Below, in pieces: positions 4,013 through 60,055 of a stretch of DNA of 64,000 bases. Below the pieces are notes generated by a model. The model was not told the origin of the DNA. It worked only from the letters and a program-made list of their open reading frames with translations, and made no database searches. The stretch is from a virus, in the IMG/VR virus record IMGVR_UViG_3300025120_000020; one strand, 5' to 3'. The first letter of the stretch is position 1. The number at the start of each line of letters is the position of its first letter. The translations under genes were made by a program, and so were the position numbers.

Positions 4013-4783
4013 TCAATATTTAAATGGATTTGCCGTGATAAATGTATTTGGCATTATCTTCCTAACATAAACATACCCTGAATTACGATAAGAGTCAAGC
4101 ATGTGATTTGTTAATGTTCTAAAAACCTTTGGAGTTCTATCTTTTACGCCCTTATTATTCATGGTAATACTCCAATCAGAATAAGTGGTTGCTTGGCCCA
4201 TTTCAAAGTCCATGCCCAACTGTTTCGCTATTCCCCAAAAATAAAACTCATCAGCAAAGATAACTTTTTCTTTCACAAAGAACTGTGACCAGTGCTCAAA
4301 AGTCTCAACAAACACTTCCACATCTTTTCTTCGGCAAACAAAAAACTGACAAACAGCGTTATACTCACCAAAATCGTAACCTTTTATCCCCTCCTTGAAA
4401 ATCTTTTGACCTTTAACTTTTGTGTGGAAGCTAAAATGCTTGGTAAAAGTCGTTTTTTTATATTTTTTTTTGATCAGGTCTACTGTGGTATCCAAATCAT
4501 ACAGGGGGAAATGAGAATCGCTAATTAAAGTAAAGTATTCATTGTCCTCGTCCTCTAAAGCTGCCCTCATTAGCTCTATTGTCGCTTCTACTAATGAAAA
4601 ATGACCCCAAGCTGTTGGAACGGTATTTTTTATGCAGTAATTAGAGAATGGGTGCTTAGTTTGATGTTTTGAGTGCAAATAAAGATTAAAACAGTCCTTG
4701 TCTCCCTGATTAAAAAACTCCTCCCAAACGCGATTGTGATAAAAAGAATTGATTGTTAAATTCAAAAAAGCTACTTTTTCCAT
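4013..4783 (-). CDS. GT14 / Core-2 I-branching (Branch)-like glycosyltransferase
   Basis: KVAFLNL, W..FF, YLH, TAWGHFSLVEATIELM..AL..NEYFTLISDSHFPLY, ADEFYF. Start placed at MEKVAF. Confidence 0.78.
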   Translation of the reverse strand: MEKVAFLNLTINSFYHNRVWEEFFNQGDKDCFNLYLHSKHQTKHPFSNYCIKNTVPTAWGHFSLVEATIELMRAALEDEDNEYFTLISDSHFPLYDLDTTVDLIKKKYKKTTFTKHFSFHTKVKGQKIFKEGIKGYDFGEYNAVCQFFVCRRKDVEVFVETFEHWSQFFVKEKVIFADEFYFWGIAKQLGMDFEMGQATTYSDWSITMNNKGVKDRTPKVFRTLTNHMLDSYRNSGYVYVRKIMPNTFITANPFKY

Positions 4784-4829
4784 TAATTTGTGTTTATAGT
4801 GTATTATAATAGTATAACCCAATTATACT

Positions 4830-5186
4830 ATGGACAATTTTGAAAATCCCTTAGAAAGTCAGGCCAGCGTCAATGATGCTGGAGAAATGGAAGTAACCAT
4901 CGCCAAGAAGTATTCTCAAGCAGAAGCTGGAGTTTACAAGTCTTACATGCACATGTGCGCTATGGACGATAAAATGTTTACAGATACAGCTGGGATGGGT
5001 GATAAGGATACTTACGGTGCTTGTGCCATGCAATATGGTAAAATGCGAGCCATGATGATGGACGATAGCAAAGGAGAACTCACTGAAAAACAAAAGAAAT
5101 TACCCCCAGCATTACAAAAAGCCATCATCGAGAAGATGAAAAAAGAGGGTAAGAATAAAGAAGACGAGAAAGAAGAAAAAGAATAA
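4830..5186 (+). CDS. Hypothetical phage protein
   Basis: 118 aa with LTEKQKKLPPALQKAI segment; GTGTA motif upstream. Confidence 0.7.
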   Translation: MDNFENPLESQASVNDAGEMEVTIAKKYSQAEAGVYKSYMHMCAMDDKMFTDTAGMGDKDTYGACAMQYGKMRAMMMDDSKGELTEKQKKLPPALQKAIIEKMKKEGKNKEDEKEEKE

Positions 5187-5221
5187 TTGATTTTTATATC
5201 TTTTTTCTATAAAATCTTTTA

Positions 5222-5521
5222 GTGAAAACGATTGTTAAAAAGAAATTAGAAATCGAAACTAAAAGACATGATTTCGATAACGAATTTGCTTATATCGAAA
5301 CGTGGCACAACACACAGCTGAAAGATTGTTTTTTCGCAGAGAAGCAATTCCTCTGGCCTGATGGTAGCTTGAAGGCTGGAGGAAAAAAATATTTCTTAGG
5401 CAGGAGTCTTGATTCCCCAGAAAAAGAGATTAAATGTATTAATTATAATAATTTTAACTACTTCGACCATCTATACTTTTTTGGTGAAACTGGAGAGGTT
5501 ATAAATATATTGAACAAGTGA
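5222..5521 (+). CDS. Hypothetical protein
   Basis: 99 aa, GTG start 6 nt after TTGATT-N17-TAAAAT. Confidence 0.6.
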   Translation: MKTIVKKKLEIETKRHDFDNEFAYIETWHNTQLKDCFFAEKQFLWPDGSLKAGGKKYFLGRSLDSPEKEIKCINYNNFNYFDHLYFFGETGEVINILNK

Positions 5522-5522
5522 T

Positions 5523-6395: not shown

Positions 6396-6420
6396 ATTGA
6401 TTCGATCAATGCGGCAATCT

Positions 6421-6729
6421 TTAAAAATAAAGTTCATCAAAGAACCTATTTCCATTATATGCCTTGTCATCAATCCAAAAATCATATGCTGGCTTGTTCA
6501 TCTTAAGCTCTGTATATTTGACCCCCCACTCTTTAAGTTGCTTCTTTGTAAGCTCCGACCAATCTTTTCCTGAGTTCCCTCCTCTCGCAGTCCAGTAGAT
6601 TACTGTATTGCCACTATCAACCAATCCATTGAAATATTGAATACGAGCTTTCATAGGGCGAGCTAATTCATATCTGCCCCGACTATCTGTGCAAATAGTC
6701 CCATCAATGTCTACGATAAAAGTTTTCAT
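6421..6729 (-). CDS. Minimal HAD-family phosphatase (capsule-biosynthesis type)
   Basis: Motif I VDIDGTI, motif II WTAR, K-P and IDDK motifs III/IV. Confidence 0.85.
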   Translation of the reverse strand: MKTFIVDIDGTICTDSRGRYELARPMKARIQYFNGLVDSGNTVIYWTARGGNSGKDWSELTKKQLKEWGVKYTELKMNKPAYDFWIDDKAYNGNRFFDELYF

Positions 6730-7202
6730 AGTTCTTTAATTTTTGTTATAATTTTCGTGGCACTTATATCCTCAGAGAATGGAATGAAATATACCTCTGT
6801 TTGTCCACAGGATGCCTTCTCAGACGGATGTAATGTCGCAATGCTATAATCTCCACCTTTATACCAACGAGAGGGCTTAAGGTGTCTCAGGTAGCCAGAA
6901 ACTGTTGCGTCATTAAACACAAACACATGGTCAACGCACTCATGACAAGCTACAAGAAAGGCTCTCTGTTTTTGGCTGATAATAGGTCTTTCTGAACCCT
7001 TATTTTGCTTAACGCTTTCATCTCCATTCACGCCGACAACTAATTCGTAATCATCGGGCAAATCTTCCTTAATTGATTTCAGAAGGTGTGCATGACCTGC
7101 GTGAAACAAATCAAAGCAACCATTAGTAAAGGCCATATTTTTCGTTCCCGTCGAAAAATGGTGCATAATCTTAGTTATATTAGCTATTTTAGGATGATTC
7201 AT
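6726..7202 (-). CDS. rfaE2: Heptose-1-phosphate nucleotidyltransferase (RfaE domain II / HldC-like)
   Basis: FTNGCFDLFHAGH (HxGH), VGVNGDESV..NKG..RPI, KGGDY. Confidence 0.9.
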   Translation of the reverse strand: MNHPKIANITKIMHHFSTGTKNMAFTNGCFDLFHAGHAHLLKSIKEDLPDDYELVVGVNGDESVKQNKGSERPIISQKQRAFLVACHECVDHVFVFNDATVSGYLRHLKPSRWYKGGDYSIATLHPSEKASCGQTEVYFIPFSEDISATKIITKIKEL

Positions 7203-7948
7203 ATCGTTGCTGTTCCAGCTTTACTGATGACAATGCTACAGCAAGTCTGAGCGTAGTCAATCGCTGAATCTATATCTTGATTGAATAAATAGTTAGTCGC
7301 AAAAGCAGCAAGGAAAGTGTCTCCAGCACCACTCACATCTCTCACTTGAGCGACAGATTTCAAAGGGTATTTCTTTCCTTTGAACCTACATCCTCCACCC
7401 CCTAAAGTAACAATAAGGTTATCCATACCCATCCCTTTAAATCCATTCTCTTTGTATTCCTTTTCGTTGATTTTAATCAGATCAAATGAATTAGCCCACT
7501 TTGAATTATATTTCTTTTTAGTGTCTAAAAAAGACATTTGAGCATTATCTGCAATATATTTTAAATCTTTGTCTGTCAGATATCCCTTATTGTAATCAGA
7601 AACGATTACAGCATCATAAGACCACACGTTTGCTTCATGCAACTTTAATTCATCAATCTCTTTATACTCATCTGAATCAACGCGCAAAAACATTTGATTA
7701 GAATTAGAGTCAATATATCTAACCTTTGCTCCAGTGCTTTTATTGCTTTTAATCTCTACCTCTGCCTTTTTACCTAAATCATCAAGGCAAGCAATGACAT
7801 TTCTATGGACGTTAAAGGCCATACCCATAAAGGTAACTGAGTCCTCCTGCTTAAAAACAGGGACTGGAGCTTCTGGGCATAATCTATCAGCAGACCCATA
7901 AGTAAAAATGTCTAAGCATGACTCTCCAATAACAAGAATTTTTTTCAT
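7199..7948 (-). CDS. rfaE1: Heptose-7-phosphate kinase (RfaE domain I / HldA-like, PfkB family)
   Basis: ILVIGESCLD..G..RLCPEAPVPV, VSDYNKG, DVSGAGDTF. Confidence 0.88.
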   Translation of the reverse strand: MKKILVIGESCLDIFTYGSADRLCPEAPVPVFKQEDSVTFMGMAFNVHRNVIACLDDLGKKAEVEIKSNKSTGAKVRYIDSNSNQMFLRVDSDEYKEIDELKLHEANVWSYDAVIVSDYNKGYLTDKDLKYIADNAQMSFLDTKKKYNSKWANSFDLIKINEKEYKENGFKGMGMDNLIVTLGGGGCRFKGKKYPLKSVAQVRDVSGAGDTFLAAFATNYLFNQDIDSAIDYAQTCCSIVISKAGTATI

Positions 7949-8319
7949 TTCTGCGAATCTCCTTTTTGAACCCTGTAAGAATCTTCCTCAAAATGCTGAG
8001 TGCTTACTTCAAATACAGAAGATTCTTCTATAGCAATGAGTTTATGAGGTATACAAGGCTTTAAATGAATTGTCTCTCCAACCCGCAAGATCATTTCTTT
8101 TTCCTCGGCATTACTCAAATCATAATATTTTAAAAGAAGTTTACCTTTTATTACGGCCCAAGTTTCTTCCTTCTTGATATGGTAGTGCATGGAGAACTCC
8201 GCTCCTTTATTAAACTTTAGAATTTTTCCGCAATAAAGTTCGTTGTTCGTAATCCAGATCTCTTTACCCCAGCCCTTTGCATAAGTCTCAACAATACCTT
8301 TGATTGGCTCCATGCTCAT
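7945..8319 (-). CDS. Cupin sugar-phosphate isomerase-like protein
   Basis: KGWGKE, SMHYHIKKEETW, PHKL, EVST (mannose-6-phosphate isomerase type II-like cupin). Confidence 0.8.
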   Translation of the reverse strand: MSMEPIKGIVETYAKGWGKEIWITNNELYCGKILKFNKGAEFSMHYHIKKEETWAVIKGKLLLKYYDLSNAEEKEMILRVGETIHLKPCIPHKLIAIEESSVFEVSTQHFEEDSYRVQKGDSQK

Positions 8320-11644: not shown

Positions 11645-12445
11645 TTATACACACTCTAAGACTTGTTTCCAATCCATTTCTCCAATCGCAGATGTTAGCT
11701 TTGTAATGTCTGCTTGGGTAAATTTTTGATACTTGCCCTTGAGTTTTGTGGGCATCGCTATCTGCTTGACCTTTGCCCCAGAGTTTTCTGCCATTTTATC
11801 TGCAATTTCTTTAAAAGAAACAGAGTTGCCAGTCCCAACATTAAAAACCCCATTAGTATCATGATGAAGCATCCTATAATGAACTTCACAAACATCTTCC
11901 ACATGCACGAAGTCTCTACTAGCTTTTCCCCTAAATACTTTGATCTCGCCATCTTCTTGAATTTGTTTGATGAATTTCGTTATCGGACTTGCCTGATCTC
12001 CTTTATGTTCCTCATGTGGACCATATACATTAAAATAGCGAAATCCTTGATAGGGATGATCTTCGTTCAAAAGCCAGTTGTCAAACATATATTTGCTATA
12101 AGCATAAGGGTTTAGAGGGACGCAGAACTGATCCTCTTCAAATGTCTCTGCTGCACCATAGACAGAACCACTGCTAGCGTATTGAAATTTAACACCCATA
12201 TTCGCACATAATTGATAAAGTGTGCCAGAGAATATAAAATTCTCATTTAAAATCTTTTTTAAGTCGGTTTCCGTAGTGCTAGAGTTAGCTCCAAGATGAA
12301 TGACGGCATCAATACCATTCAAAGGAGGCAAACTACCACCGAACTTAATATCGTAAGGAACGACCTCTATTCCTCTTTTCTCAAGATAAGGACAGAGATT
12401 TTTGCCAATAAACCCCTCACTGCCCGTAACTAATACCCTTTTCAT
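11645..12445 (-). CDS. rfaD: ADP-L-glycero-D-manno-heptose 6-epimerase-like SDR
   Basis: TGSEGFIG, HLGANSSTTE, YASSGSVYG, PLNPYAYSK..FD, FRYFNVYGP.E.HKG..AS, YQKFTQAD. Confidence 0.88.
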   Translation of the reverse strand: MKRVLVTGSEGFIGKNLCPYLEKRGIEVVPYDIKFGGSLPPLNGIDAVIHLGANSSTTETDLKKILNENFIFSGTLYQLCANMGVKFQYASSGSVYGAAETFEEDQFCVPLNPYAYSKYMFDNWLLNEDHPYQGFRYFNVYGPHEEHKGDQASPITKFIKQIQEDGEIKVFRGKASRDFVHVEDVCEVHYRMLHHDTNGVFNVGTGNSVSFKEIADKMAENSGAKVKQIAMPTKLKGKYQKFTQADITKLTSAIGEMDWKQVLECV

Positions 12446-13429: not shown

Positions 13430-13444
13430 CAAAGGATGTTACAC

Positions 13445-32501: not shown

Positions 32502-32540
32502 AAAAAAACTCCTTCTAGGTAAGCACAACCTAGAAGGAGC
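32502..32540 (-). terminator. Rho-independent terminator after hsp20
   Basis: 12-bp stem CTCCTTCTAGGT/ACCTAGAAGGAG followed by T7 on the minus strand. Confidence 0.8.
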
Positions 32541-32561
32541 GATATAAGTCACTTCAAAGTT

Positions 32562-39065: not shown

Positions 39066-39644
39066 ATGAAATTTACACTTTATAAGCCTAATGCTAAAAA
39101 TACTGGATCAGCATTCACCTTTGACTGCACTAAAGACAGAAACGGTAATCCAGTTCTTTTTGTCTCCATGATTCTTCAGCATAGCTGGAATAATGAACGT
39201 AAAACGGGTTCTTTTAAGGAGAACGCCAAGAATCCAGATAAATCTACTACAATTAAACTCACAGACATTGAAGCTGGAGAGTTCTTGTCCTCAATGAAAA
39301 CTAGGATTCCATTCTTAGGTTTTCACAAAACAGAAGAAAAAACAACAATCATTAAATTCACCCCTTGGGATAAAAATCGTATCATCAAAAACAAAGATGG
39401 TCAAGAAACCTTTAAATCGCCAGCTTGGGGTCTGACAGTTACAAAAAATTCTTCTCAATTCTTTAAACTTCCAATCGAAGCTGGAGAGGCTGAATGCCTA
39501 GCTGTTTTGCTTGAAGGCTATATAAAAGAGAGTTTAACTGCTAAATCAGAAGCTTATAAGCAGGATCAGCCCAAAAAAACTTACCAAAAATCCACACCTA
39601 AAGCGTCCGTAGTTGAGGACGACGATGACGATGTCCCATTCTAA
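39066..39644 (+). CDS. Putative single-stranded DNA-binding protein
   Basis: Aromatic/basic beta-rich body; acidic tail EDDDDDVPF like the bacterial SSB tip. Confidence 0.6.
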   Translation: MKFTLYKPNAKNTGSAFTFDCTKDRNGNPVLFVSMILQHSWNNERKTGSFKENAKNPDKSTTIKLTDIEAGEFLSSMKTRIPFLGFHKTEEKTTIIKFTPWDKNRIIKNKDGQETFKSPAWGLTVTKNSSQFFKLPIEAGEAECLAVLLEGYIKESLTAKSEAYKQDQPKKTYQKSTPKASVVEDDDDDVPF

Positions 39645-41337
39645 AATCAAAGTCTTAGTTCAGTCTAATTATTCCCGTATGGTAACGGGTTTCGGGAAGA
39701 ATATTAAAAATATTCTTCTCGCTCTTTATAATGATCCAGATATTGAAGTCGTAGAAGCTGCCAACGGAGTTCCTTATGGTAGGGATATAAGCACCCCTTG
39801 GGAGTCCTACGGCACTTATCCTTCTAATCCCAAGATCCTTAGTGCTATAGAAAAAGAACCATCTAAAAAAAGAGCCGCGCAATATGGATTTTATGTAATT
39901 GATGAGATCGTAGAAAAAGTAAAACCAGATGTATTTTTGGGGATCGAAGATGTCTGGGCTTTCAGGGAATATGAAAATAAACCTTGGTGGAATAAAACAA
40001 AAAAAATCATTTGGACAACTTTAGATAGCTTACCTATTTTAGATCAAGCTATTAAAATGGAACCAAAATGTGACAAAATGTTGGTTTGGGCTAGCTTCGC
40101 TGAAAAGGCAATGAAGGAGCTTGGTCATGAGACAGTGGAGACTGTTCACGGAGCCGTAGACTACAGTCACTTTAAACCTCTGGATAACAGAGAAGAGTTG
40201 CGAAAACTCCACGGTCTTCAAGACGATTTCGTAATTGGGTTTGTATTCAAAAACCAACTAAGGAAGTCTGTCCCCAATCTATTGGAAGGATTTAAAAAGT
40301 TTAAAGAGAAAAACCCAAGGGTCTCTGCAAAGCTCCTCCTGCATACGGACTGGGGAGAAAAAGATCATGGATGGGATATCCCAAGATACCTAAAAGAAAA
40401 AAACCTTGAAGACGGAAGCGTATTAGCAACTTATGTATGCCACAAGTGTGATGATTACTTTGTTCGGCCATATTCTGGAGAAGATAAAGACTGTCCTTCA
40501 TGCGGTTCTAAGAAATCTTTAAAAACGAAGAATAGCGGAAAGGGAGTAGGAGAGAAGGAGCTAAACGAGCTATATAACATGATGGATGTTTACTGTCACC
40601 CATTCACAAGTGGAGGTCAGGAGCTACCAATTCAAGAGGCTAAAGCTGCTGGACTAATCACTCTGGTTACAGACTACTCTTGTGGAACTGATTCTGCATA
40701 TGAGCATCAAGGTGGACTACCTCTATCTTGGAATGAATATAGGGAACCAAGCACTCAGTTTATTAAAGCTACTACATGTCCAGATAGTATTTGTGAGAGA
40801 ATACAGCAAGTTTACGAAATGGACGAAGACTCTAAATCTAAACTCATTGAAACTGGCAAAAAATATGTTAAAGAAAAATTCTCAGTTCGCAATACTGTAG
40901 ATAAATTAAAACAACATATAAAGTCAGTCGAAATAAGAACAAATGAAGAGGAGGAAAAGGAGGATAAGAAGCCTAGTATCTCAGTAGAGGATTTCTTAAA
41001 AGACACCCCACTTAAAGATAGAATTGCCGTAGTGCTTCCTAGATCGGCGGGTGATGTCTTAATGGCTAACTCTCTTATGGAGAACCTTCATAATCTCTAT
41101 CCAGACAAGAAGATATTCTTTGTCACCCAGCCAGAATTTTACGACCTTATTAACGATAATCCTTTTGTTCATAAAGTTATCCCTTATTCAAACTCATTTG
41201 AAGACTTGCATGTTCTTGAAGGCAGGGGGGATCATCAGGGTCTTTTCGATATAGCCTTTCTCCCTCACTGTATGACACAGAAGACATATAGCTATAACCA
41301 CAATGGGAAAGATAAAACTCAATTTAAATTAAGATGA
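39631..41337 (+). CDS. GT4 glycosyltransferase with zinc-ribbon insert, fused to a GT9 N-terminal domain
   Basis: TGFG, KNQLRKS, CHKC..CPSC, LYN.MDV.....SGG.ELP..EA.A.G; C-terminal PRSAGDVLM......L...YP...I.FVT......I..NPFV. Confidence 0.82.
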   Translation: MSHSKIKVLVQSNYSRMVTGFGKNIKNILLALYNDPDIEVVEAANGVPYGRDISTPWESYGTYPSNPKILSAIEKEPSKKRAAQYGFYVIDEIVEKVKPDVFLGIEDVWAFREYENKPWWNKTKKIIWTTLDSLPILDQAIKMEPKCDKMLVWASFAEKAMKELGHETVETVHGAVDYSHFKPLDNREELRKLHGLQDDFVIGFVFKNQLRKSVPNLLEGFKKFKEKNPRVSAKLLLHTDWGEKDHGWDIPRYLKEKNLEDGSVLATYVCHKCDDYFVRPYSGEDKDCPSCGSKKSLKTKNSGKGVGEKELNELYNMMDVYCHPFTSGGQELPIQEAKAAGLITLVTDYSCGTDSAYEHQGGLPLSWNEYREPSTQFIKATTCPDSICERIQQVYEMDEDSKSKLIETGKKYVKEKFSVRNTVDKLKQHIKSVEIRTNEEEEKEDKKPSISVEDFLKDTPLKDRIAVVLPRSAGDVLMANSLMENLHNLYPDKKIFFVTQPEFYDLINDNPFVHKVIPYSNSFEDLHVLEGRGDHQGLFDIAFLPHCMTQKTYSYNHNGKDKTQFKLR

Positions 41338-42443
41338 GCCACTTAGTAGAAGTTTATGCAAAAGATTTGGGAGTTAAAATTGGCGACCCACATTTCAAAC
41401 CTCATTTTTTTCCTGTTCTTGAAGATAACTATATTACCATCCACAATGACAATAAAGTTCAATCCAAAGAATACGATTATTGGGAAGAGGTTATTTGTTT
41501 AGTTAAGGAGCAAGTTCCAGATATTAAGTTTATTCAAATAGGCTCTGGACAAGAACCAATAATAAAAAATGCAACAAAGTTCGCTGCCACTTCCAGCATA
41601 AAGCAGTCTGCTTACATCATTAAGAATGCATTAATGCACGTTGGCATAGATAGTTTGCCAGTTCATATTGCATCATCGTTTGATAAACCTATTGTCTCGA
41701 TATACGCACATACTTATGCCTCTACTTGCAGACCAATCTGGGGTTCAAAAAATAATCATACGATAATTGAGTCCCACAGAGATGGTAAAAAACCATCTTA
41801 CTCTTTAAAAGAACAACCCAAGCAAATAAACTTGATCAAGCCAGAGGAAATAGCTAATGCCGTTCTGAAAAGGCTAGGGAAAAACAAAAGTTCTAGAAAA
41901 ACAATTTTTATTGGCGACAAATATAAGGAAAAATTTATCCATATTATACCAGATAAGAAATATGGGGTATCCTCCAAGCAAACAGTTCTTAGGTTTGATT
42001 TACATCATGATGAAGAAAATACTCTTCATTTATTCGCAAATAATAATATTTCTATTGTGACAAACAAGCCATTAGGAGATAAACTTTTAAGTCAAAAAAA
42101 TATAAATTGCATTAATTATTTTTGTGATCGATTCGACTCGGGGTTTGTCGAAAGAGCGAAAAATAAAGGTATAACTTTACGTTTATTTTGCACGGACGAG
42201 GGAAACCTTAGTGAAGAAAGGCTTAAGTTTTTTGACAACCAAATCCTTTTAATAGACGAATCTAAAAAAATAGAAGAAAATAAAAAACAAATTGAATTGC
42301 CCGAAAAAGATTTAAAAATAAAATCTTATACAATTTACTTTAAGAACGGGCAAGCACATCACTCTCTCTTTGAGGCAAATAACAAAGAGAGTTTAGACGA
42401 TATTTTTATTGACTTGGACAAACTTATGCTTTATACTGATTAA
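41334..42443 (+). CDS. GT9 (heptosyltransferase-like) C-terminal domain protein
   Basis: HLVEVY...LG, YITIH, K.Y..W.EV, IQIG, Q.A.II.NA..HVG.DS.P.HIA....KP.V.IY. Confidence 0.82.
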   Translation: MSHLVEVYAKDLGVKIGDPHFKPHFFPVLEDNYITIHNDNKVQSKEYDYWEEVICLVKEQVPDIKFIQIGSGQEPIIKNATKFAATSSIKQSAYIIKNALMHVGIDSLPVHIASSFDKPIVSIYAHTYASTCRPIWGSKNNHTIIESHRDGKKPSYSLKEQPKQINLIKPEEIANAVLKRLGKNKSSRKTIFIGDKYKEKFIHIIPDKKYGVSSKQTVLRFDLHHDEENTLHLFANNNISIVTNKPLGDKLLSQKNINCINYFCDRFDSGFVERAKNKGITLRLFCTDEGNLSEERLKFFDNQILLIDESKKIEENKKQIELPEKDLKIKSYTIYFKNGQAHHSLFEANNKESLDDIFIDLDKLMLYTD

Positions 42444-42444
42444 A

Positions 42445-43227
42445 ATGAGTGATAAAAAGATTTACGGACCTGATCTTTACAAGCGTAATGAGCATGGGCT
42501 TTTAGAAAATGCAGAATACGAATTTAATGAAGATGGCTCTGTAAATTGGAGAGCCATGATTAAGCCAGAGTTTCTTTACCCAAATAAAGATTGGTTTGAA
42601 GCTCGCAAAAAGGATGTTCCTACTTCACCAGAGGGCTTGGATGACAAACAGCTTTTGATCATGCTTGGTGGCATTAAGGAGTTGGCTCGACTCAGGGGAT
42701 TTCAGAGTGTTTCGTTCAAAACCGACCACCTTAGTGATACTTATGTTGTGGCTAATTGTGAAATTGTTTGGTCTCCTAATTATGAAAGTCATGATCAAGG
42801 TGTTGTTTACCAAGATGTCGCAAATGCGACACTACAAAATACAGGTTCTTTCGCAGCTAAGTTCTTAGAAACTATCGCTTGCAATAGAGCTTTTGTGAGA
42901 TGTGTTCGTAATTTTCTAAACATTCACATCGTGGGAGCTGATGAGATTGATAAATCAAAAGGAGCTGTAAATTCTCAATCAGTTGAATCTTCTGCTGATG
43001 AAACTATAGGAAGCATTCTTTCCCCTCACACAAGACTATTTCAAGACTGGCAAGACTATACTGGTGGGGGTAACAATTTCGAAGACTTCAAAAAAGGAGC
43101 CTTGCGCTCTCTATGGAAGCAAGAGATTTATCAAAATAAAGATGCTCAAAACTGGAATAACTTTGACGAAATACCAGTCAAAGAGGTTCGCAAAATTAGA
43201 GCTGCTATTAGAAAACTAAAGTCCTAA
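42445..43227 (+). CDS. Rad52/Sak-like single-strand annealing protein
   Basis: GGIKELA..RG, V.A.C.I, ETIA.NRA.VR.VR..L.I...G.DE; promoter TTGACT-N17-TATACT at 42409-42437. Confidence 0.6.
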   Translation: MSDKKIYGPDLYKRNEHGLLENAEYEFNEDGSVNWRAMIKPEFLYPNKDWFEARKKDVPTSPEGLDDKQLLIMLGGIKELARLRGFQSVSFKTDHLSDTYVVANCEIVWSPNYESHDQGVVYQDVANATLQNTGSFAAKFLETIACNRAFVRCVRNFLNIHIVGADEIDKSKGAVNSQSVESSADETIGSILSPHTRLFQDWQDYTGGGNNFEDFKKGALRSLWKQEIYQNKDAQNWNNFDEIPVKEVRKIRAAIRKLKS

Positions 43228-51083: not shown

Positions 51084-54000
51084 TTAATATCCCGGCCCCA
51101 ATAGTGGCCGCTCACTACCCGAAAGAGCGTTATTGTCTTTTTTTCTAGCCGCAGTATCGGCAGCAAGATTCTTTAGTATTGTGTTTTGGGCTTCTATTGC
51201 TGCTTTTGCAGTTGTGGCCATCTCAAAAACTGTCACTGATAAATTTGCTATTTCTGTCGAAGCGCTTGTGTATCCCTCAAGATCGGTAGCAGCATTAGCC
51301 AAAACCATCTCTGTTTCTTTGATGACTTTTGTTAAACCCTCAACATCAAAAGCGGCGGCATAATTTTGCATTTGTGTTTTTATAGCCTCTTGTTGGGTCG
51401 CTAAAGCTCTCATTTGTTCTTCATTAGCGGTTAGCGCCTTATCAAAAGCATCTTCGTCTACGCCAGCAGACATAAACCTTTCTTTTAATGAAAGTCCAGA
51501 TGCGTCTACTTGTTCTCCACCAATGGCTCTCTTTCTAGCAACCATTGAACGATCTTCGGGAGTCATAGTCCCAATAGTAATATCTTTTATAAGCTTTTGC
51601 CTTCCTTCGTTAAGGCTGGAAGTAGCTTCGCTAATTTGAGCAACTAATTCAGCCATTCTTACGGATTGTTCATCTCCAGAAAGGCTGCTATTTCTGATAT
51701 TTTTTAACTCTTCTTGGAATCTGCCGACAATACCAAGGTCGAATATTTCACCAGTCCCTGCTTTAGTCATGTCAGACACATTTACATCGCTTCTAGCTTT
51801 ATCTCGTTCTGATATAAGATTTAACCTATCTTTTGCAGCTGCTCTTAATTCTTTAGTAACTTCATTTTGCTTTTGCTGCATGAATATCGCGCCTTCTTTA
51901 ACTCTTGCTTTAAAATCCTCTGAAGCTTTCTTTAATTCTTCTGCAAGACCTTTGTCCCCCGGCGCTGCGGCCACTTGACTCGTTAATTGTTGAATTAGAT
52001 TTTGAGCTTGAGTCGTTTCTCCAGTCATTGAAGATATACTAAAATCTCTTTTCAAAAGACTTGCGAATGGCCCCTCCTTTCCAGTCATTAAGCTCCCACC
52101 TATGAATGATTTTTCGCGTTCCTCCAAGAGTGATTTTCCCACCCTCTCAGCAATGAGATTTTTTCTTTCTTTTTCTAATGCAATTTCATTTTTCTTGATT
52201 TGATTTACATTCGCCTGAATCTTTGCTGCATTTTTTAGTGTGAAGGCAGTCTTTCGGGTTACTCTTTGAAATTCTTCTTCAAGTCTAGTGCGATCATTTG
52301 CAGAGATCTTAGAGTCGGACAATGCCTTTGTAAGCTGCTCTAGCTCCCGCGAAGTATCAAGAGACGCGATTCCAGTGTCTTTAGCTAATGTGCTTAACCT
52401 TTTTTGAATTTCTTTTTGACCGATCCTTCTACCTCGACCAGCAAGCGTGTCTCCAGCGTTATCACCTCCTTTCATTATACCCGACATAATAAACGTTCTA
52501 AGCTTCTTTACCTCAGCACCTCGTTTCTCGTCTGCCGAGAGTTTTGCGTTTTTCGCTTCAATCTTATTGGCTTCTTCCGTCATTGCTCTTGAATCCAGCA
52601 CCGCCTTTCCAAAACCCACCATAGCACCAGCCGCTGCGCCCAGTGGCCCACCAATCATAGCTCCAGCCGCAGCGAATGTTGTGATTGTGCTAGTTGCGTC
52701 CGTAAAAGCGGCAGCTGTATCCGCCCCTGCTGCTTCAAGAGGCGATGAAAAAGCACCTACAGCTTGCCCAGCCATACTAAGCCCCATACCCCCTCTCATA
52801 GAGGGAGTTCTATTTCTTAAAGCTCTGCCAGTAACACCACCAATCCTTGAATTCGCTATACCAGATCCAATTTGGCGAGCGGGGTGCATAAGATTAGCTC
52901 CAAATTGACGAACATTTCCTAAGCTAGGTCTTGCTAAGTTTCCCGCTCTAGCCCCCAAATTAGAAATGCCAGACCCGATTCGTCCAACTCTTTGGCCTAC
53001 TCCAGATCCGACTTTAGATATATTTGACCCAGCCCTATTTATAAATTGTCCAGCCCTTGAATTGTTGAAATTTTGTTGCGCTTGTGCAGCGCGTTGCTTC
53101 TTAACGAGATCGCTAACTATTTTTTGATTTCGTTTTTTAATGTCTTTAATCGGGTCTTTTCCTTTTCCCTTGCCTCCTGATCCCGCCATTCCCATGCCCA
53201 TCGCCAAGAACATCAGTGAGTCCATGTCCATACCCATAGACCCTTCATTGTATCTTTTGATTTTTAGGTTGGGCAATGAGCCTTTTGCGAAATTCCCTAG
53301 CCTACTAGCTCTTTGTGCGCTAACTGCTTTCCTTCTAGATACTCTAAGGTTCGTTCCTTTTTTGTCATGTTCTCTGGCAGCTTGTGCTTTAACTTCGCCT
53401 TCGGTGAAAGATCCAGCCCCCTTCTCTCTTCTTACTTTTCTTACGAATGATCTCTTGTTTCCATCAGAGCTAGAATTTTTAAAATCACCAATAGTCTGAC
53501 GTATCCCAAAAAGCTTTTGAATTTTGCTGATATTTGGCCCTCCTCTAACATCAAAATCACCACCCAAATCTCTTTCTCTAGCTTCATATTGTAAAGATTT
53601 GCTTATGCCCACTTCAAATGCAGATCCAATAGCACCGTTCAAAGCTCCTTTGGCTCCACGGATAGAGTCAAATCCTTTTGCTATTTCAGATACTGGGGCA
53701 GATTTATCTAATGGTTTGATCCTTGAAGTCCAATCAGCAGCCTCTTTAAATAAAGTGTTTTTAACTTTTTCCTCTAGAGAATCTTCTGTCTTGTCAGAGA
53801 TTCCTTTAATTTGGGATGACTTTATTCCATGAATTTGATGAGTCGCTTTGTGCTTCACTTTATCCACCGTCATTGGACCGAAAGAACTTCTTTCGTCTAT
53901 TTTTGGAGTCAAAAATACGAAACGATCTCCAAGTTGTTTATCATTCGCAATATTAGTCCCTTCGGCTGATCCTTTTTTCCCTTTAAATATTTTCCTCTTC

Positions 54001-55790
54001 CCGCTACCTTTGTTAAATCTAGGGATTTGATCTTCGCGTAAAATCTCTTCTCTTCCATTAATGCGAACTTGCATTTCGGAAGTGTTCATGACAGCGGGGC
54101 TACCTCTAAAATTAGTAACGAAAGGCGTTGCTCCTCTAGGAGCATCTCTAGCCTCATTCATCATGGCAGACATCAAGTTTGGTTCCATTTCTCCTGCTCC
54201 TCCAGCAGCGAAGCGCTTGCCTCCCTTGCCAGCAAAACCACCTGTTCCACTAAATCCTCTAACACCCTTTGAAGCAGCTAGCATACCGATCCTTCTTACT
54301 AGCTGTTCTTGTTGAGTTAATAATTGGTTTTCTTTTTGAATGGCCGCGATTACAGCTTGTTCTTTTTGAGCTTGTGTAGCCGTGGTGCTTGCGAGCACCT
54401 TTCTTAAGTTAGCGTCTTTTTGTAATAAGCTAACAATACCACCTTCAATATTCTTAATTCTTTCGGTAGCAGAACCCATCTGCATAACAGTCTTAAATCC
54501 ATCTTTAGCAAATTTAAGAACTGTCCCGAAAATTTTAGCGAAAGCAACTGTAAAGATAGCCAACCCCGGCCCAGATAAAAAGCCTCCAATAATTTTAAAT
54601 AAACCCTGTATAAACTTATTACCCTTTTCTGGATCGAATGCTCCATCAAGCATCTCTGAAAATTTAGTGGCAAGCCCAACTAAATTCTTTAAAAGTGGTC
54701 CGAAAGTAATGCCACCCAGTTTTGCTCCTAAGCTTGTAACAGAGACAACAAGGGAATTAATTTGAGCTGCAAGCTGCTCATTAAGTGCAATGTTTTTACT
54801 TGTAGCTTCATTAGTAGCATTAAAAGATTTTGATGTAGCTTGTCCAAAAACAGAAGCTTCACTCCCAATATCTTTTAACGCAGCACTAACAACGTTGATT
54901 TGGAAAACTCCACCAGCGAGTTCTTTAATTTTACTTGCTACAGTGGGATCTGATATATTGTCTAAAGCTTTAGAGAGTGCCTGTAGTTTTTGAACTCCAG
55001 TCTGGGTGGCATTAATCTCAACTCCCAACGACTTAAGATCTTCAATGGTAGTTCCCCTGCTCAAGCGAGTAAAAATTGATTTAAAAGCGTTACCAATAAC
55101 GGCTCCACCTCGCGCAGTTCTCTGCTCAACAGCAGTAATTAGTCCCAGTAGTTCATCAAAACTAACTCCAGCATCTTCAGCCGTAGACCCAGCTCGACTA
55201 AAACCCTCCGCAAGGTCTTGAGCGGAAACAGCAAAAGCCGTATCGACAGCAACAATTTTGTTGACCACTTGCTCCGCACTAAGTCCAGCAGAGGTGAAAC
55301 CATTCATAGCTGCCGTCAGAGCCTTTACAGACTGTTCTGCTCCCAGCCCAGATATTCTGGTTAATATAAGGGAAGCTTGCAACCTTCTAGCACTTTCTGT
55401 AGCGCTCAAACCCTGCCTCGCAAGTTCAGCAGCACCTTCAGCTACAGTCTCAAATGACTGCCCTGTAACTTTGGCCACTTGAAAAATTGAATTTCTATAT
55501 TTATTAAACTCTGAAGCTCCTGCTCCCAAGATTGAGTTAATTTCAACTAATTTAGATTGAACGGTTACTGTAGTGGAGAGGAGAGCTTTAAATGATTGGG
55601 TTACTCCATTAATAATAGCAGTCGTTGCTCCGAACGCAAAAACACGAGCAGTAGAAGCATCTAGTGATTTTTGGAACTCAGAAGCTTGACCTGTAATTCT
55701 ACCTAAAGCTTGCTGCACCTGCTTCGCAGAGGCATTGATACTAGCTGGGTTTAGGTTTAGATTAGCATTAATATTTAGTGGAGCAGCCAT
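51084..55790 (-). CDS. Tail tape measure protein
   Basis: About 1570 aa, Ala/Gly-rich helical; TP901-like core (AAELARQG, LAEGFSRAG, GNAFKSIFTR), RFAAGG/RFNKG repeats. Start placed at MAAPL. Confidence 0.92.
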   Translation of the reverse strand: MAAPLNINANLNLNPASINASAKQVQQALGRITGQASEFQKSLDASTARVFAFGATTAIINGVTQSFKALLSTTVTVQSKLVEINSILGAGASEFNKYRNSIFQVAKVTGQSFETVAEGAAELARQGLSATESARRLQASLILTRISGLGAEQSVKALTAAMNGFTSAGLSAEQVVNKIVAVDTAFAVSAQDLAEGFSRAGSTAEDAGVSFDELLGLITAVEQRTARGGAVIGNAFKSIFTRLSRGTTIEDLKSLGVEINATQTGVQKLQALSKALDNISDPTVASKIKELAGGVFQINVVSAALKDIGSEASVFGQATSKSFNATNEATSKNIALNEQLAAQINSLVVSVTSLGAKLGGITFGPLLKNLVGLATKFSEMLDGAFDPEKGNKFIQGLFKIIGGFLSGPGLAIFTVAFAKIFGTVLKFAKDGFKTVMQMGSATERIKNIEGGIVSLLQKDANLRKVLASTTATQAQKEQAVIAAIQKENQLLTQQEQLVRRIGMLAASKGVRGFSGTGGFAGKGGKRFAAGGAGEMEPNLMSAMMNEARDAPRGATPFVTNFRGSPAVMNTSEMQVRINGREEILREDQIPRFNKGSGKRKIFKGKKGSAEGTNIANDKQLGDRFVFLTPKIDERSSFGPMTVDKVKHKATHQIHGIKSSQIKGISDKTEDSLEEKVKNTLFKEAADWTSRIKPLDKSAPVSEIAKGFDSIRGAKGALNGAIGSAFEVGISKSLQYEARERDLGGDFDVRGGPNISKIQKLFGIRQTIGDFKNSSSDGNKRSFVRKVRREKGAGSFTEGEVKAQAAREHDKKGTNLRVSRRKAVSAQRASRLGNFAKGSLPNLKIKRYNEGSMGMDMDSLMFLAMGMGMAGSGGKGKGKDPIKDIKKRNQKIVSDLVKKQRAAQAQQNFNNSRAGQFINRAGSNISKVGSGVGQRVGRIGSGISNLGARAGNLARPSLGNVRQFGANLMHPARQIGSGIANSRIGGVTGRALRNRTPSMRGGMGLSMAGQAVGAFSSPLEAAGADTAAAFTDATSTITTFAAAGAMIGGPLGAAAGAMVGFGKAVLDSRAMTEEANKIEAKNAKLSADEKRGAEVKKLRTFIMSGIMKGGDNAGDTLAGRGRRIGQKEIQKRLSTLAKDTGIASLDTSRELEQLTKALSDSKISANDRTRLEEEFQRVTRKTAFTLKNAAKIQANVNQIKKNEIALEKERKNLIAERVGKSLLEEREKSFIGGSLMTGKEGPFASLLKRDFSISSMTGETTQAQNLIQQLTSQVAAAPGDKGLAEELKKASEDFKARVKEGAIFMQQKQNEVTKELRAAAKDRLNLISERDKARSDVNVSDMTKAGTGEIFDLGIVGRFQEELKNIRNSSLSGDEQSVRMAELVAQISEATSSLNEGRQKLIKDITIGTMTPEDRSMVARKRAIGGEQVDASGLSLKERFMSAGVDEDAFDKALTANEEQMRALATQQEAIKTQMQNYAAAFDVEGLTKVIKETEMVLANAATDLEGYTSASTEIANLSVTVFEMATTAKAAIEAQNTILKNLAADTAARKKDNNALSGSERPLLGPGY

Positions 55791-55804
55791 TGTAATTAAA
55801 TACA

Positions 55805-56662
55805 CTAAAAGTCTTCAGCAGTCAGCTTTCCTCCTTTTTGTGCCATTTTTGCTCTAAGGTCAGAGACCCCTTCTTTGACTTTATCTCCCTGCGCCCTATC
55901 TTCTTTTGGCTGGAAATTATATATTTTTACAGCGTCTTCCCTAATGTCATCAGGAATATCAAGATTTTTAAGTTTACTCAAAAGGACGGAAGCGTAAGAT
56001 AATAGGTTTTTTTGCCATATTGTTATTTTGTAAATGTTTGTGTCAAGAATCTGATTTGGATCTCTATAATTTAAACAATATACATCAAAAAAGTAAGATT
56101 CATAAGAGACTTTCAATAAATTCTCAATATTTGTTAGTTCTTCTATCTTTGAATTAACCTCTGAAATTAAAAAAAACAAATCTTCCTCATTTACATTTCT
56201 AGTCATCTCCTTATCGTAAAAGAGGCTTAGACTTATTTCCTTATTAGCCCTTTTTCTTTTTCCTAGATTTTCAGCGCTATGATTAGTAAATTGATTCTTT
56301 TTTGTTTCTAATTCAGTAAGCTGACCTAACTGTTTTGCAACAGAATCTTCAAAAGCTTTTTTAGTATTATTATCTGCTATTTTTGCAGAAGCCTTTTTGG
56401 ACTTTTCAATAATCCATTTTAAGTCCTTCATTGAAGACTCTTCCTCTTTCGACCACCCTCCTCTATTTATTGCTAACTCTAGAAGCTCATCTTCGCCCTT
56501 GATACCTTGCTTTTTAGCTTCAGTAATACAATCTAACTCAAACTCTTCAAGCTTTAAGCTATCATATACTCCAAAATGTTTGAAGTAATAGTTTTTATAC
56601 TTGTGAGTTATTTTACTGTAACCTCGCAGTATATCTAAGAGTAGTGAATTGCACTTGTTCAT
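55805..56662 (-). CDS. Tail assembly chaperone-like protein
   Basis: Helical, directly upstream of the tape measure gene. Confidence 0.55.
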   Translation of the reverse strand: MNKCNSLLLDILRGYSKITHKYKNYYFKHFGVYDSLKLEEFELDCITEAKKQGIKGEDELLELAINRGGWSKEEESSMKDLKWIIEKSKKASAKIADNNTKKAFEDSVAKQLGQLTELETKKNQFTNHSAENLGKRKRANKEISLSLFYDKEMTRNVNEEDLFFLISEVNSKIEELTNIENLLKVSYESYFFDVYCLNYRDPNQILDTNIYKITIWQKNLLSYASVLLSKLKNLDIPDDIREDAVKIYNFQPKEDRAQGDKVKEGVSDLRAKMAQKGGKLTAEDF

Positions 56663-57491: not shown

Positions 57492-57863
57492 CTAAAAAAT
57501 ATATTCGATCTCAATAGTGGAATCTCCATGTTTTTCAAACTCAATGTGGTCAAAGCCAGTTGAACCAGAAACATTATTTGCGATTAGAGCATCATCAATA
57601 AAATAAGAATAAGTGTCATTTCTCTTCATGTGAACTGAAATATCAAATGAATTATTAGGAGAATAACCCCCAACAAACCTACCTGATTGATCAAAAATAT
57701 ACCCCACGCTTCCAGAAAAAACAAACCCACTATTCAGTAACCCATCTCCTCCAGCATTGCCAGTCCCAGCAGCTACAGAGAATCCAGAAAAAGTATCATC
57801 AATAGAAATAGTTAAATTTGTAATTGATTCTTCATAACCATCGACTTGTTGGTAAACCTTCAT
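57492..57863 (-). CDS. Small virion-associated protein
   Basis: 123 aa, S/T-G rich, GTGTA motif upstream. Confidence 0.55.
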   Translation of the reverse strand: MKVYQQVDGYEESITNLTISIDDTFSGFSVAAGTGNAGGDGLLNSGFVFSGSVGYIFDQSGRFVGGYSPNNSFDISVHMKRNDTYSYFIDDALIANNVSGSTGFDHIEFEKHGDSTIEIEYIF

Positions 57864-57879
57864 TCTCTATATATTACAC

Positions 57880-57913
57880 AAAAAAACAGCCCCACCTTTC
57901 GGTGAGGCTGTTT
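57880..57913 (-). terminator. Rho-independent terminator after the tail tube gene
   Basis: Minus strand CAGCCTCACC-GAAA-GGTGGGGCTG followed by T7. Confidence 0.9.
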
Positions 57914-57929
57914 GTATTTTTAAAATAGA

Positions 57930-59141
57930 TTAACTAATTGGTTGAGCAGTCAACTTGTTATTTGTTCCACTTACAACAGTAAAGGCTGGAACATCAGCCT
58001 GTGGGAAGAAGAACAGCCCTTGGTCAGTGGTAGAAGCACCACCGATTTGAGCAGAGAAAGTGAGATCAACAGTTTCGTTATCATCAAGTCCTTGCGAGAA
58101 TGACTGACTATCAAGAACAGCTCCACTAAGAACATACTCTACTGCGGCTGCGCCATCGTTTGTAATGTTCAATGTGATGTTAGTCTTATTATTCTCAGCA
58201 GTTCCAGTCAAAGCATACTCAAGTGCGCCTGAAGCAAAGTCCCTAGTAAGAGTATTGACGCTCATAGTAACGTCAATTGGGAATTCAAGGAGTTTGGCAT
58301 AAGCCAACTCATTTCCAAGAGCCTCAATAACTTCACGAGCTAATGGAAGCTCAACAGAAGCACTTTGAATAGGTAAAGCACTAAAGGTAGGTCCACCAAT
58401 TTTCGAAACTCCATCAGTCCCATCATTGAAAGTAATAGTTACATCTTGAGGACGAAGAACCAATGGAAGATTGTCAGCATCAGAACTTGGAGCAGGAAGT
58501 TTAACAATCCCAGTGTGAGTTCTTTCTCCTTCCAAGTCTAGCGATGGGTTAAGCAGACCAGAATTAATTCCAGTATAGAAAACCACATTAGAAGCTTGCA
58601 TTTCAATATCAGCCCGTGGGATCTCTCCAACACTGAAGTTTGCACTGTAGCTGGAAAGGAAACAGTTTCCGAATCCAACAACATCGTGGTTATCTTCATT
58701 TGTTATCATTGTTGCCTCCGTTTCATTAAAAGCATCTTCTCCCTCTGCAACTGTTAGTAGGAAAATATTGCGCTCTTTAAGAATAGGATCTTCTGTCAAT
58801 TGTCCAGAACACATTTGACCCTTAACTGATGCCGTTGATTTCTGGAAACCAAGAGCCAATTCATTTTCTCCATCCCCCAAGAAGTATCCGAAACTTAAAG
58901 TTGGATTCACTTCAGTAAGGTTAACGGTTCCGATTCGTGCTAATTGACCAAATTCTCTGACATCTTGACGCGCTCCAGCGAGATCCATTTCGAATGAAAA
59001 GGTATCAACACGATGCAGGTGATGACCTGTTACCATGCTATTGCCAGTTAAAGGAGTTCCTGCTTCGGGATATGCGCCCCATCCAGTAGGAGTTACATAG
59101 ACCGCCTTGTTTTGTGAAATTACTCTTGTTCTTGTAGCCAT
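57930..59141 (-). CDS. Major tail (tube) protein
   Basis: L.RV.......RQDVREFGQL, CFLSSYSANFSVG, two related halves; own promoter motif and terminator. Confidence 0.75.
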   Translation of the reverse strand: MATRTRVISQNKAVYVTPTGWGAYPEAGTPLTGNSMVTGHHLHRVDTFSFEMDLAGARQDVREFGQLARIGTVNLTEVNPTLSFGYFLGDGENELALGFQKSTASVKGQMCSGQLTEDPILKERNIFLLTVAEGEDAFNETEATMITNEDNHDVVGFGNCFLSSYSANFSVGEIPRADIEMQASNVVFYTGINSGLLNPSLDLEGERTHTGIVKLPAPSSDADNLPLVLRPQDVTITFNDGTDGVSKIGGPTFSALPIQSASVELPLAREVIEALGNELAYAKLLEFPIDVTMSVNTLTRDFASGALEYALTGTAENNKTNITLNITNDGAAAVEYVLSGAVLDSQSFSQGLDDNETVDLTFSAQIGGASTTDQGLFFFPQADVPAFTVVSGTNNKLTAQPIS

Positions 59142-59176
59142 ATTTATATAAAAAGGTTTACCTTAAATACACTGAT

Positions 59177-60055
59177 TTAAGACCTTGGGAAACGATAGGT
59201 TGATAAATCAAAGTCTAAGAATGCTATAGAGAAGTCTTTATTCAGTTTTTCTCGCAAAGCCTCAGAAACAACTTTTGAAGCTGTAACGCTATCAATATAA
59301 GAACATAGAGGGCTAGTCCCTTGATTTCCTACAATGCCAGTATAAGTATAAGGAAAATCTTTTACAGAGTAAGAATAAGCATATGGGAACTCCTCATAAG
59401 GAATGTGAGTTACTTTTTCTCTTACGGTATCTCTAAGCCTAGAAATAACAGAATCTAAAATATAAGAATCTTTAGTTAAAATCATGACACGAACCCTACT
59501 TTGAGTGTTTTCCTCCCCACCAAATGCGAACTCTTCATTCTCAGAAGAAGCTAGAGAAACAAAACAAGCTGGAAGGAAATAAGCCCCTTTGTCTATAATT
59601 CCTGTTTCATTATAAAAGTAAGGCGAATCTTGCCCATTCTCTAAAAAATCAGAATAGACCAAAAACTCTACATCATCATCGTGAGAGATGTAAGTATTTA
59701 CTTCTTTTACAGAATAAGTCCCAGATATATTTAATCCAGTTCCAGAAGCTTCAGGAAATAAAAGTCTTCCATTTTCGTAATCAGTATGAACCCCTCCATT
59801 TGCACTAGAATCTCCAGTGACAAGACCCCCGCTCACCATAAACCCAGAGTTTACAACATCGATATCATAATCAGCGACAAGTTGACGATACTCTCCCTGA
59901 TAACCAACCATATCAGCAGGAATATCATCAAAATCTACATAGCGAAAATTATTGTCTAATCCAGTTATATAAGCTTTAGTGTCAGTCTTTAACAAGCGGT
60001 TTTCTAACCACAAGTAAAAACTGGACAATAAATTCTGATCAAATTGAGCTTTCAT
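59177..60055 (-). CDS. Tail terminator/neck-like protein
   Basis: Position before the tail tube; DYENGR..F, LPACFV, FAFGG. Confidence 0.55.
   Translation of the reverse strand: MKAQFDQNLLSSFYLWLENRLLKTDTKAYITGLDNNFRYVDFDDIPADMVGYQGEYRQLVADYDIDVVNSGFMVSGGLVTGDSSANGGVHTDYENGRLLFPEASGTGLNISGTYSVKEVNTYISHDDDVEFLVYSDFLENGQDSPYFYNETGIIDKGAYFLPACFVSLASSENEEFAFGGEENTQSRVRVMILTKDSYILDSVISRLRDTVREKVTHIPYEEFPYAYSYSVKDFPYTYTGIVGNQGTSPLCSYIDSVTASKVVSEALREKLNKDFSIAFLDFDLSTYRFPRS

Follow-up and report, generated by a model that had tools for sequence, protein, structure and literature searches.

A GT9 heptosyltransferase fold divided between two genes in a family of uncultured marine phages, and its possible part in virion glycosylation

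Marine phages often carry 'lipopolysaccharide (LPS)-like' sugar genes of a purpose that has never been tested, and islands of phage sugar genes beside fibre genes are already known from the literature. In uncultured pelagimyophages, rfaE-type genes and several glycosyltransferases (GTs) lie next to the tail-fibre genes and were read by the authors as agents of envelope remodelling (PMC7029224); the 'LPS genes' of marine cyanophages have been interpreted likewise in print. The 64,000-nucleotide stretch of the IMG/VR virus record IMGVR_UViG_3300025120_000020 that was analysed here (the window) is part of the genome of an uncultured marine tailed phage with a GC content of about 36%, and it encodes enzymes of heptose-donor synthesis, about eight transferase-like proteins and a heptosyltransferase fold of family GT9 that is divided between two adjacent open reading frames (ORFs). 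An earlier reading of the sequence alone had proposed that these genes form a complete system by which the phage attaches heptose to its own virion proteins. Unlike the 'LPS gene' clusters of cyanomyophages and pelagimyophages, which are variable accessory genes, the GT4-GT9 gene pair of this phage is a fixed core, and the lineage also differs from those phages in its DnaE-type polymerase and in its tail module.

The closest described enzymes are the GT9 heptosyltransferases WaaC and WaaF (PDB 2H1F, 1PSW), with which the phage enzyme shares the fold of the donor lobe (PF01075), an 'AGDV' motif in the N-terminal lobe (N-lobe) and the lack of transmembrane segments; because HldD is encoded, ADP-L,D-heptose is the likely donor here. 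It differs from them in that the N-lobe is itself divided between two polypeptides and is joined to a zinc-ribbon GT4 domain, the donor lobe carries a fused Rossmann-like domain, and the scores against the LPS equivalog models are far below cut-off. The N-lobe and donor-lobe traits of family GT9 in CAZy were both found, while the location of both lobes on one polypeptide was not.

TibC and AAH of the BAHT family (PDB 4RAP, 4RB4; PMC4358343) resemble the phage enzyme in their GT9-related donor lobe (Z 16.1) and in the proposed acceptor residues, Ser/Thr at turns in beta-rich repeat proteins whose genes lie close by, in the manner of tibC-tibA and aah-aidA. BAHT enzymes modify protein serines and form a dodecameric ring. 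The hallmarks of this family are an N-terminal beta-barrel and a four-cysteine iron-finger in the C-lobe, and TibC prefers ADP-D,D-heptose (PMC4358343), whereas the phage encodes HldD. In the AlphaFold2 model of the phage enzyme there is no beta-barrel before the N-lobe, its place being taken by the GT4 domain and a helical linker; the donor lobe contains no invariant or near-invariant cysteine among 35 homologues, the only four-cysteine motif being that of the GT4 domain; and the N-lobe carries the ordinary GT9 signature, whereas that of TibC is atypical. Membership of the BAHT family was rejected, since both defining features, the beta-barrel and the cysteine finger of the donor lobe, are absent.

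In chloroviruses and in some mycobacteriophages, the virions are glycosylated by soluble transferases that the virus itself encodes. The phage resembles both in encoding soluble GTs, and the chloroviruses also in Gmd and a methyltransferase, but those systems, unlike the present one, have mass-spectrometric and structural proof. To our knowledge, neither of them uses heptose or a GT9 enzyme. The mycobacteriophage system is that of Freeman et al. 2023 (Cell Host Microbe), as it is cited in ref. 80 of PMC12582341. Heptose is also used in phage DNA hypermodification, where reconstituted gene clusters of metagenomic phages, with a GT-B transferase, a HAD protein or kinase and a nucleotidyltransferase, produce heptose and di-heptose on 5-hydroxymethylcytosine (bioRxiv 10.1101/2023.12.21.572611).

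The divided GT9 transferase

The division of a GT9 fold between two ORFs, already proposed in the sequence-only reading, is robustly real and is the firmest and most unusual result. The product of 41334-42443 (chain 2) matches the donor-lobe family with 35.1 bits against a cut-off of 22 bits, and the N-terminal signature of GT9 was found at residues 470-528 of the product of the upstream ORF (chain 1; E 0.0037). The downstream ORF overlaps the upstream one by ATGA and opens with the last helix of the N-lobe. The identical GT9 protein is on record for a contig of 152,748 bases. Relatives were sought in IMG/VR by alignment and confirmed on 411 stretches of viral contigs; of 87 loci compared, 82 have the module, which belongs to the core gene set of every relative found, and in all 82 the two genes are separate ORFs, with junctions of -13 to +922 bases. 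A sequencing error or a (programmed) frameshift was rejected as the cause of the split, because both the length and the frame of the junction vary over these loci. No longer, fused form of chain 2 was found in a weak search.

In the AlphaFold model of chain 2 (pLDDT 92.7), residues 1-184 match WaaF with Z 17.1 (root-mean-square deviation 3.0 over 170 residues) and WaaC with Z 17.1 (2.8 over 148 residues), followed by the Veillonella GT9 enzyme 3TOV (Z 16.8) and TibC, while other GT-B folds reach a Z of 11 at most; WaaC/WaaF and TibC, lying within one unit of Z, are tied in this search. The donor-lobe motif residues G104, D106, S107 and H111 are invariant over the 35 homologues. The model of chain 1 (pLDDT 84) comprises the GT4 domain and then the helical linker before the N-lobe. 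Invariant among 25 homologues of this chain are C272, C275, C290 and C293, the four cysteines of the zinc ribbon within the GT4 domain, and D477, the catalytic-type Asp of the 'AGD' motif in the N-lobe. In the PDB the GT4 domain comes closest to 3OY2, a transferase of chlorovirus NY-2A (E 5.5e-17, TMt 0.76), and its other solved matches include the small-molecule transferases BshA and MshA; a hidden Markov model (HMM) search of the GT4-GT9N family against PDB sequences gave no match.

Complex prediction docks the N-lobe piece on the donor lobe with an ipSAE of 0.78, the best of three controls giving 0.00; among solved complexes 58 of 80 attain this mark, and among mismatched pairs 2 of 110 do so. 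Agreement between the runs extends to at least 92% of contacts, with a partner pLDDT of at least 72. The docking indicates compatibility rather than binding, and likeness to the solved GT9 structures may explain the score. The novelty lies in the zinc-ribbon GT4/GT9 architecture with its two, presumably obligate, chains and in the constant position that it holds within a large family of marine phages.

The likeness to LPS enzymes bears on the alternative that the sugars are placed on the LPS core, the capsule or another surface glycan of the host, which could block superinfection or the sticking of progeny to debris, a reading that we regard as somewhat unlikely. Both GT9 halves match the models of LPS heptosyltransferases I, II and III best, in structure WaaC and WaaF come first or share first place, and HldD would supply the L,D form of the donor that is used for LPS (PMC4358343). 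However, the scores fall far short of the NCBIfam equivalog cut-offs (29.5 against 170.2 for heptosyltransferase III, 19.7 against 185.3 for I, and 16-18 against 134.6 for II), and the literature searched gave no experiment in which a lytic marine phage changes the LPS of its host.

Heptose donor and other sugar genes

The donor was said to be made by a four-gene nucleotide-heptose operon together with HldD. The assignment of HldD is well supported, and the kinase and adenylyltransferase of the operon also stood; the GmhA slot, however, is occupied by a cupin and the GmhB slot by a weakly matching HAD protein of 102 residues, so that for two of the pathway's five steps the assignment is a purely positional one. 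No match to SIS, the fold of GmhA, was found among the approximately 60 window ORFs scanned against Pfam. The kinase, adenylyltransferase and HldD find their best matches in TIGR02198, TIGR02199 and TIGR02197, respectively, yet each scores below the equivalog cut-off, and the proteins are shortened. The order of the four-gene cluster (6421-8319) recurs in relatives (G002 and G009) at 55-89% identity. Judged from its genes, which cover three specific steps towards ADP-L,D-heptose and a GT9-fold transferase with conserved donor-site motifs, the phage very probably makes and uses heptose.

Among 18 large contigs that bear the module, HldD is found in nine and the adenylyltransferase in eight. The relative G006 (147,748 bases, 100% complete according to CheckV) lacks the kinase, the adenylyltransferase and HldD altogether and retains the GT9 genes. 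The hld genes are thus separable from GT9, the full set is a clade-specific elaboration, and the description of the heptosylation system as complete was an overstatement, the more so as the GmhA and GmhB steps are positional.

The retention of GT9 without hld genes in G006 and in several large contigs also speaks for the possibility that the acceptor is something else, such as a non-structural protein of host or phage, an oligosaccharide in free form or a small molecule, or that lineages lacking hld use a donor other than ADP-heptose. The small-molecule transferases among the solved neighbours of the GT4 domain point in the same direction, as do the unexplained parts of the module, namely the Rossmann-like domain added to chain 2 and the partner gene for a protein of 272 residues. 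We consider this quite unlikely: there is no positive evidence for any particular acceptor of this kind, and eight transferase-like genes with two donor pathways would be a large outlay for a small-molecule product.

Directly downstream of hldD lies a gene for a 324-residue DUF5824 protein (12458-13432, minus strand), which accompanies hldD in relatives, with 86-94% identity. A weak PHROG match likens it to a cytidyltransferase, and it may belong to the sugar pathway.

The further GT2, GT4, GT14-like and DUF5672 proteins, Gmd and the methyltransferase of the earlier account are all borne out by family matches, but the deacetylase is a weak call, its DUF2334 match lying below cut-off (Table 1). 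Gmd and the adjoining SDR protein would together provide a GDP-6-deoxyhexose. No membrane segment was seen in any of the GTs, and no window ORF of at least 80 residues has more than one hydrophobic segment. Lipid-carrier and export genes are likewise absent from the window, which speaks weakly against action on the host envelope, as the host could supply them. WaaC and WaaF are themselves soluble enzymes of the cytoplasmic face, and export would fall to the host. The combination of soluble GTs and missing wzx/wzy genes is therefore non-discriminating, and the argument that had been built on it, correct as to what the window contains, cannot separate a virion target from an LPS target.

Distal-tail proteins and the target of the glycan

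The sequence-only reading had placed the glycan on tail and neck proteins enriched in the dipeptide [ST]G (Ser or Thr followed by Gly). Nine of the ten structural ORFs could be identified with neither PHROGs nor Pfam; the matches to known families are those of the tape measure protein and, weakly, a head protein, so that the labels 'tail' and 'neck' proved to be positional. The best single proteins of the window show an excess of [ST]G with Poisson P = 0.001-0.009, which is not significant after correction for 67 proteins. The product of 38125-39027 has 15 such sites against 8.7 expected, with up to 29 against 12 in its relatives. What remains of the claim is a modest excess at the level of families, in three or four distal-tail families. 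The homologues of the 38125, 45645 and 46481 products have a two- to three-fold excess in every relative examined (29 against 9.3 expected in locus L058, for instance), and those of 47902 in most relatives, L058 being an exception (3 against 5.1). For comparison, 42 structural proteins of lambda, T5 and T4 average a ratio of 1.16. The reverse dipeptide G[ST] is not enriched, and the excess is absent from the tape measure protein, the 49517 and 43216 products and the putative head protein.

Residues at [ST]G sites are more conserved than their counterparts elsewhere in these proteins, both for S/T (0.73-0.85 against 0.50-0.78) and for G (0.73-0.91 against 0.53-0.71). The sites lie in a hydrophobic-[ST]-G-hydrophobic context, and the 46481 family, whose HMM found no match among PDB sequences, contains a quasi-periodic run of invariant TG positions. 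This pattern fits selected glycosylation sites and, equally, the turns of a beta-rich repeat fold. The 46481 family lies about 5 kb from the GT9 module; the donor-lobe gene is present in 49 of its 54 loci, and the other five are cut by the end of the contig, three of them retaining the gene for the 272-residue protein. No relative with a 46481 homologue and without GT9 was found among the informative loci.

The sequence cannot show whether the target is the phage tail, the host surface or something else. The leading reading, which we put forward as quite possible though short of probable, is that the phage glycosylates its own virion. The phage would run a cytoplasmic programme of glycan building, in which the isomerase and phosphatase steps of donor synthesis would be supplied by the cupin and the mini-HAD protein or by the host. 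The core of the system would be the two-chain enzyme, in which chain 1 contributes a retaining-type GT4 domain with its zinc ribbon, followed by the GT9 acceptor lobe, and chain 2 the GT9 donor lobe and the extra Rossmann-like domain; the two chains would have to associate to form the heptosyltransferase. Together with the GT2, GT4, GT14-like and DUF5672 proteins and the methyltransferase, this enzyme may build a short methylated hetero-glycan on distal-tail and fibre proteins before their assembly; candidate sites in the families 46481, 45645 and 38125 are their conserved turns of the form hydrophobic-[ST]-G-hydrophobic. The solubility of the enzymes, the likeness of the GT4 domain to 3OY2, the strict co-occurrence with the [ST]G-bearing tail family and the position of the core in a distant lineage (L072), where it abuts giant fibre genes, make a virion target plausible. 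A core and highly conserved module also suits an essential function in the virion or the genome better than that of an accessory exclusion gene. The most specific form of this reading, in which the phages of a large uncultured marine family O-heptosylate their own distal-tail and fibre proteins at hydrophobic-[ST]-G-hydrophobic turns by an obligate two-chain GT4/GT9 enzyme unrelated to BAHT, we hold to be doubtful.

Several observations weigh against a virion target. The enzyme has no BAHT hallmarks, the LPS heptosyltransferase models score best, and HldD implies an L,D donor. The hydrophobic-[ST]-G-hydrophobic sites look like the beta-turn motifs of repeat folds, and in other lineages the [ST]G ratio of the giant fibre proteins that adjoin the module is about 1. 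In G006, which lacks the hld genes, the tail proteins are strongly [ST]G-rich; the enrichment is therefore independent of phage-made heptose. The SSB-like flanking gene, the sigma-like gene at the head of the island and a promoter match suit expression in the early or middle phase. Furthermore, a single ancestral gene order is possible for all these loci, so that adjacency to tail or DNA genes is weak and non-independent evidence. Of the earlier interpretation, the making and use of heptose has thus become very probable, while the arguments offered for the virion as its target are weaker than was stated.

If the virion is decorated, effects on adsorption, stability and recognition of the phage in the ocean would follow. 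If the whole reading is true, protein heptosylation would join the known viral modifications, as the first such system in a virus and with the first split GT9. The two-chain GT4-GT9 enzyme offers a concrete handle, as E. coli makes ADP-heptose and the target can be tested without culturing the phage.

Surroundings of the module and the rest of the window

The coordinates of the features are collected in Table 1. The order of the SSB-like (single-stranded DNA-binding) gene, the GT4-GT9N gene, the GT9C gene and the gene for the 272-residue protein is kept in about 75-82 loci, the SSB-like gene being the immediate upstream neighbour of the GT4-GT9 gene in about 75 of them, and at its end the island always meets the distal tail genes in convergent orientation. 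The module enzymes share 58-96% identity with those of relatives, against 22-87% for the neighbouring tail proteins. Such a core and highly conserved module is unlike typical accessory genes of surface conversion, which counts against remodelling of the host envelope. In favour of that alternative, the island has the look of an early or middle region, with its sigma-like and SSB-like genes and a sigma-70-like promoter match before the latter; the scan for promoters and terminators as a whole was at background (28 found against 23 expected).

Table 1. Features of the window discussed in the text.
Position	Strand	Feature	Evidence
2244..2933	-	DUF5672 glycosyltransferase-like protein	PF18922 1.1e-19
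4013..4822	-	GT14-like (Core-2/I-branching, Branch) glycosyltransferase	PF02485 3e-20
6421..6729	-	HAD-fold phosphatase candidate in the GmhB slot, 102 residues	PF25109 2.2e-5, TIGR01689 4e-5, both below cut-off
6726..7202	-	Heptose-1-phosphate adenylyltransferase (HldE domain II / HldC type)	TIGR02199 1e-37
7199..7948	-	Heptose-7-phosphate kinase (HldE domain I / HldA type), shortened	TIGR02198 3.4e-35; PfkB 4e-16
7945..8319	-	Cupin in the expected GmhA slot, isomerase role by inference only	Cupin_2 5e-8; WbuC-type cupin 2.7e-6
11645..12445	-	ADP-glyceromanno-heptose 6-epimerase HldD, shortened	TIGR02197 1.4e-70
26595..27623	-	GDP-mannose 4,6-dehydratase Gmd	PF16363 5.4e-101
27620..28456	-	SDR epimerase/reductase, probable Gmd partner	PF01370 4e-45; no equivalog match
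28453..29622	-	GT2 glycosyltransferase	PF00535 1.5e-16
29624..30265	-	SAM-dependent methyltransferase	Methyltransf_25 8e-15
30265..30954	-	DUF2334, deacetylase-like, weak	PF10096 1.7e-5, 25 bits against a 26-bit cut-off
31890..32552	-	GT2-like glycosyltransferase, weak	PF00535 1.4e-5
36082..36669	+	Sigma-factor-like regulator heading the plus-strand island	TIGR02937 2.2e-5; phrog_351, phrog_36
36662..37744	+	GT4 glycosyltransferase	PF00534 6e-6; conserved in 55 loci
38125..39027	-	S/T/G-rich beta-helix-like fibre protein, inverted in the GT island, fast-evolving	Identity to relatives 28-82%
39066..39644	+	SSB-like protein (Whirly-like), 192 residues, acidic ...DDDDDVPF tail	Family consensus DDDVPF; nearest Atlas entry Whirly, score 0.93
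39625..41337	+	GT4 domain with zinc ribbon, helical linker and GT9 N-lobe (last ~105 residues)	PF00534 9e-8; TIGR02195 positions 1-59
41334..42443	+	GT9 donor lobe (residues 1-184) and extra Rossmann-like domain (190-369)	PF01075 1.2e-8
42409..43227	+	Conserved 272-residue protein, always 3' of the GT9 donor-lobe gene	78 loci; ~38 invariant residues
43216..51061	-	Distal-tail region of five genes, downstream of the tape measure gene	45645, 46481 and 47902 products [ST]G-enriched; 43216 and 49517 not
51084..55805	-	Tail tape measure protein	phrog_4211 7.7e-38
57492..60055	-	Three putative tail/neck proteins, modest [ST]G excess	Identity positional; no family match

The product of 39066-39644 is probably the SSB of the phage, the Atlas score being a lead only. 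Its acidic C-terminal end is the tip motif of bacterial SSB proteins, and the HMM of the family found no match among PDB sequences. The 272-residue protein has no Pfam, PHROG or PDB match; Atlas scores below 0.9 hint at annealing proteins of the Rad52/Sak type. Within the GT island there is also a small regulator-like gene (37745-38128, plus strand), and the matches of this gene and of the sigma-like gene are weak and concordant in NCBIfam and PHROGs.

In the distant lineage L072, a set of genes upstream of the core (121-7490, plus strand) encodes a sulfotransferase, a GT47-like protein, a sugar O-methyltransferase, a GT2, a HAD-nucleotidyltransferase fusion and a WavE-like protein, while the tail gene adjoining the module codes for a giant protein of 2259 residues. 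As this upstream set differs, accessory glycan genes are swapped between lineages; the resemblance of WavE to LPS-synthesis proteins, together with the sulfotransferase, is a further point for an envelope target.

The position of the GT9 pair between the SSB-like gene and the conserved 272-residue gene in about 75 loci, and the zinc ribbon within the GT4 domain, would suit DNA hypermodification, in which the GT4-GT9 enzyme and its partners would put heptose or other sugars on a modified base and so evade restriction. Like the DNA transferases of the hypermodification clusters, the GT4 domain has BshA and MshA among its matches, but such matches are generic for any GT4. Those clusters carry a cytosine methyltransferase and a TET-type oxygenase. 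The ThyA-type hydroxymethylase PF00303 was not found in five relatives, one of them 100% complete, the C5 DNA methyltransferase PF00145 was not found in five relatives either, and Tet/JBP (PF12851) had no match in four relatives, although the control was also silent; the ThyX encoded in the window is of the ordinary type. We regard modification of DNA as very unlikely.

Searches of 50,697 phage records with megablast and tblastn brought up no cultured relative. Two contigs of a close phage relative (L145 and L146, 75-90% identity) were binned, with similar GC content, in the metagenome-assembled genome (MAG) G011, an 'uncultured Flavobacteriaceae', which hints at the Flavobacteriaceae as a possible host group of that relative. 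The only GT9 match in this MAG is that of the phage itself, and no strong HldE was found in it. As a lead only, the binning and completeness of the MAG being unclear, this suggests a host to which heptose is foreign; as the sole indication of a host, it is a further point against an envelope target and for the virion.

The window contains a replication set of a DnaE-type polymerase, a primase, a DnaB-like helicase, a RecA-like protein and a ribonucleotide reductase. The replicase is a DnaE-type polymerase III alpha subunit, whose PHP domain and proofreading exonuclease are encoded by separate small adjoining genes (16898-19459, 19459-20073 and 20060-20761, minus strand). Next to it, a 760-residue ClpB/Hsp104-like double AAA+ protein, unusual in a phage, is encoded at 14619-16901 on the minus strand, and an Hsp20 gene is located at 32562-33050. 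An amidase endolysin gene adjoins a holin-like ORF with one transmembrane segment. At the edge of the window, an ORF with an open 5' end (3-1529, plus strand) has a GC content of 49.5% against about 36% elsewhere; its product consists of 25% Ser+Thr, has a weak LamG/ConA-like lectin match and may be a fibre or receptor-binding protein.

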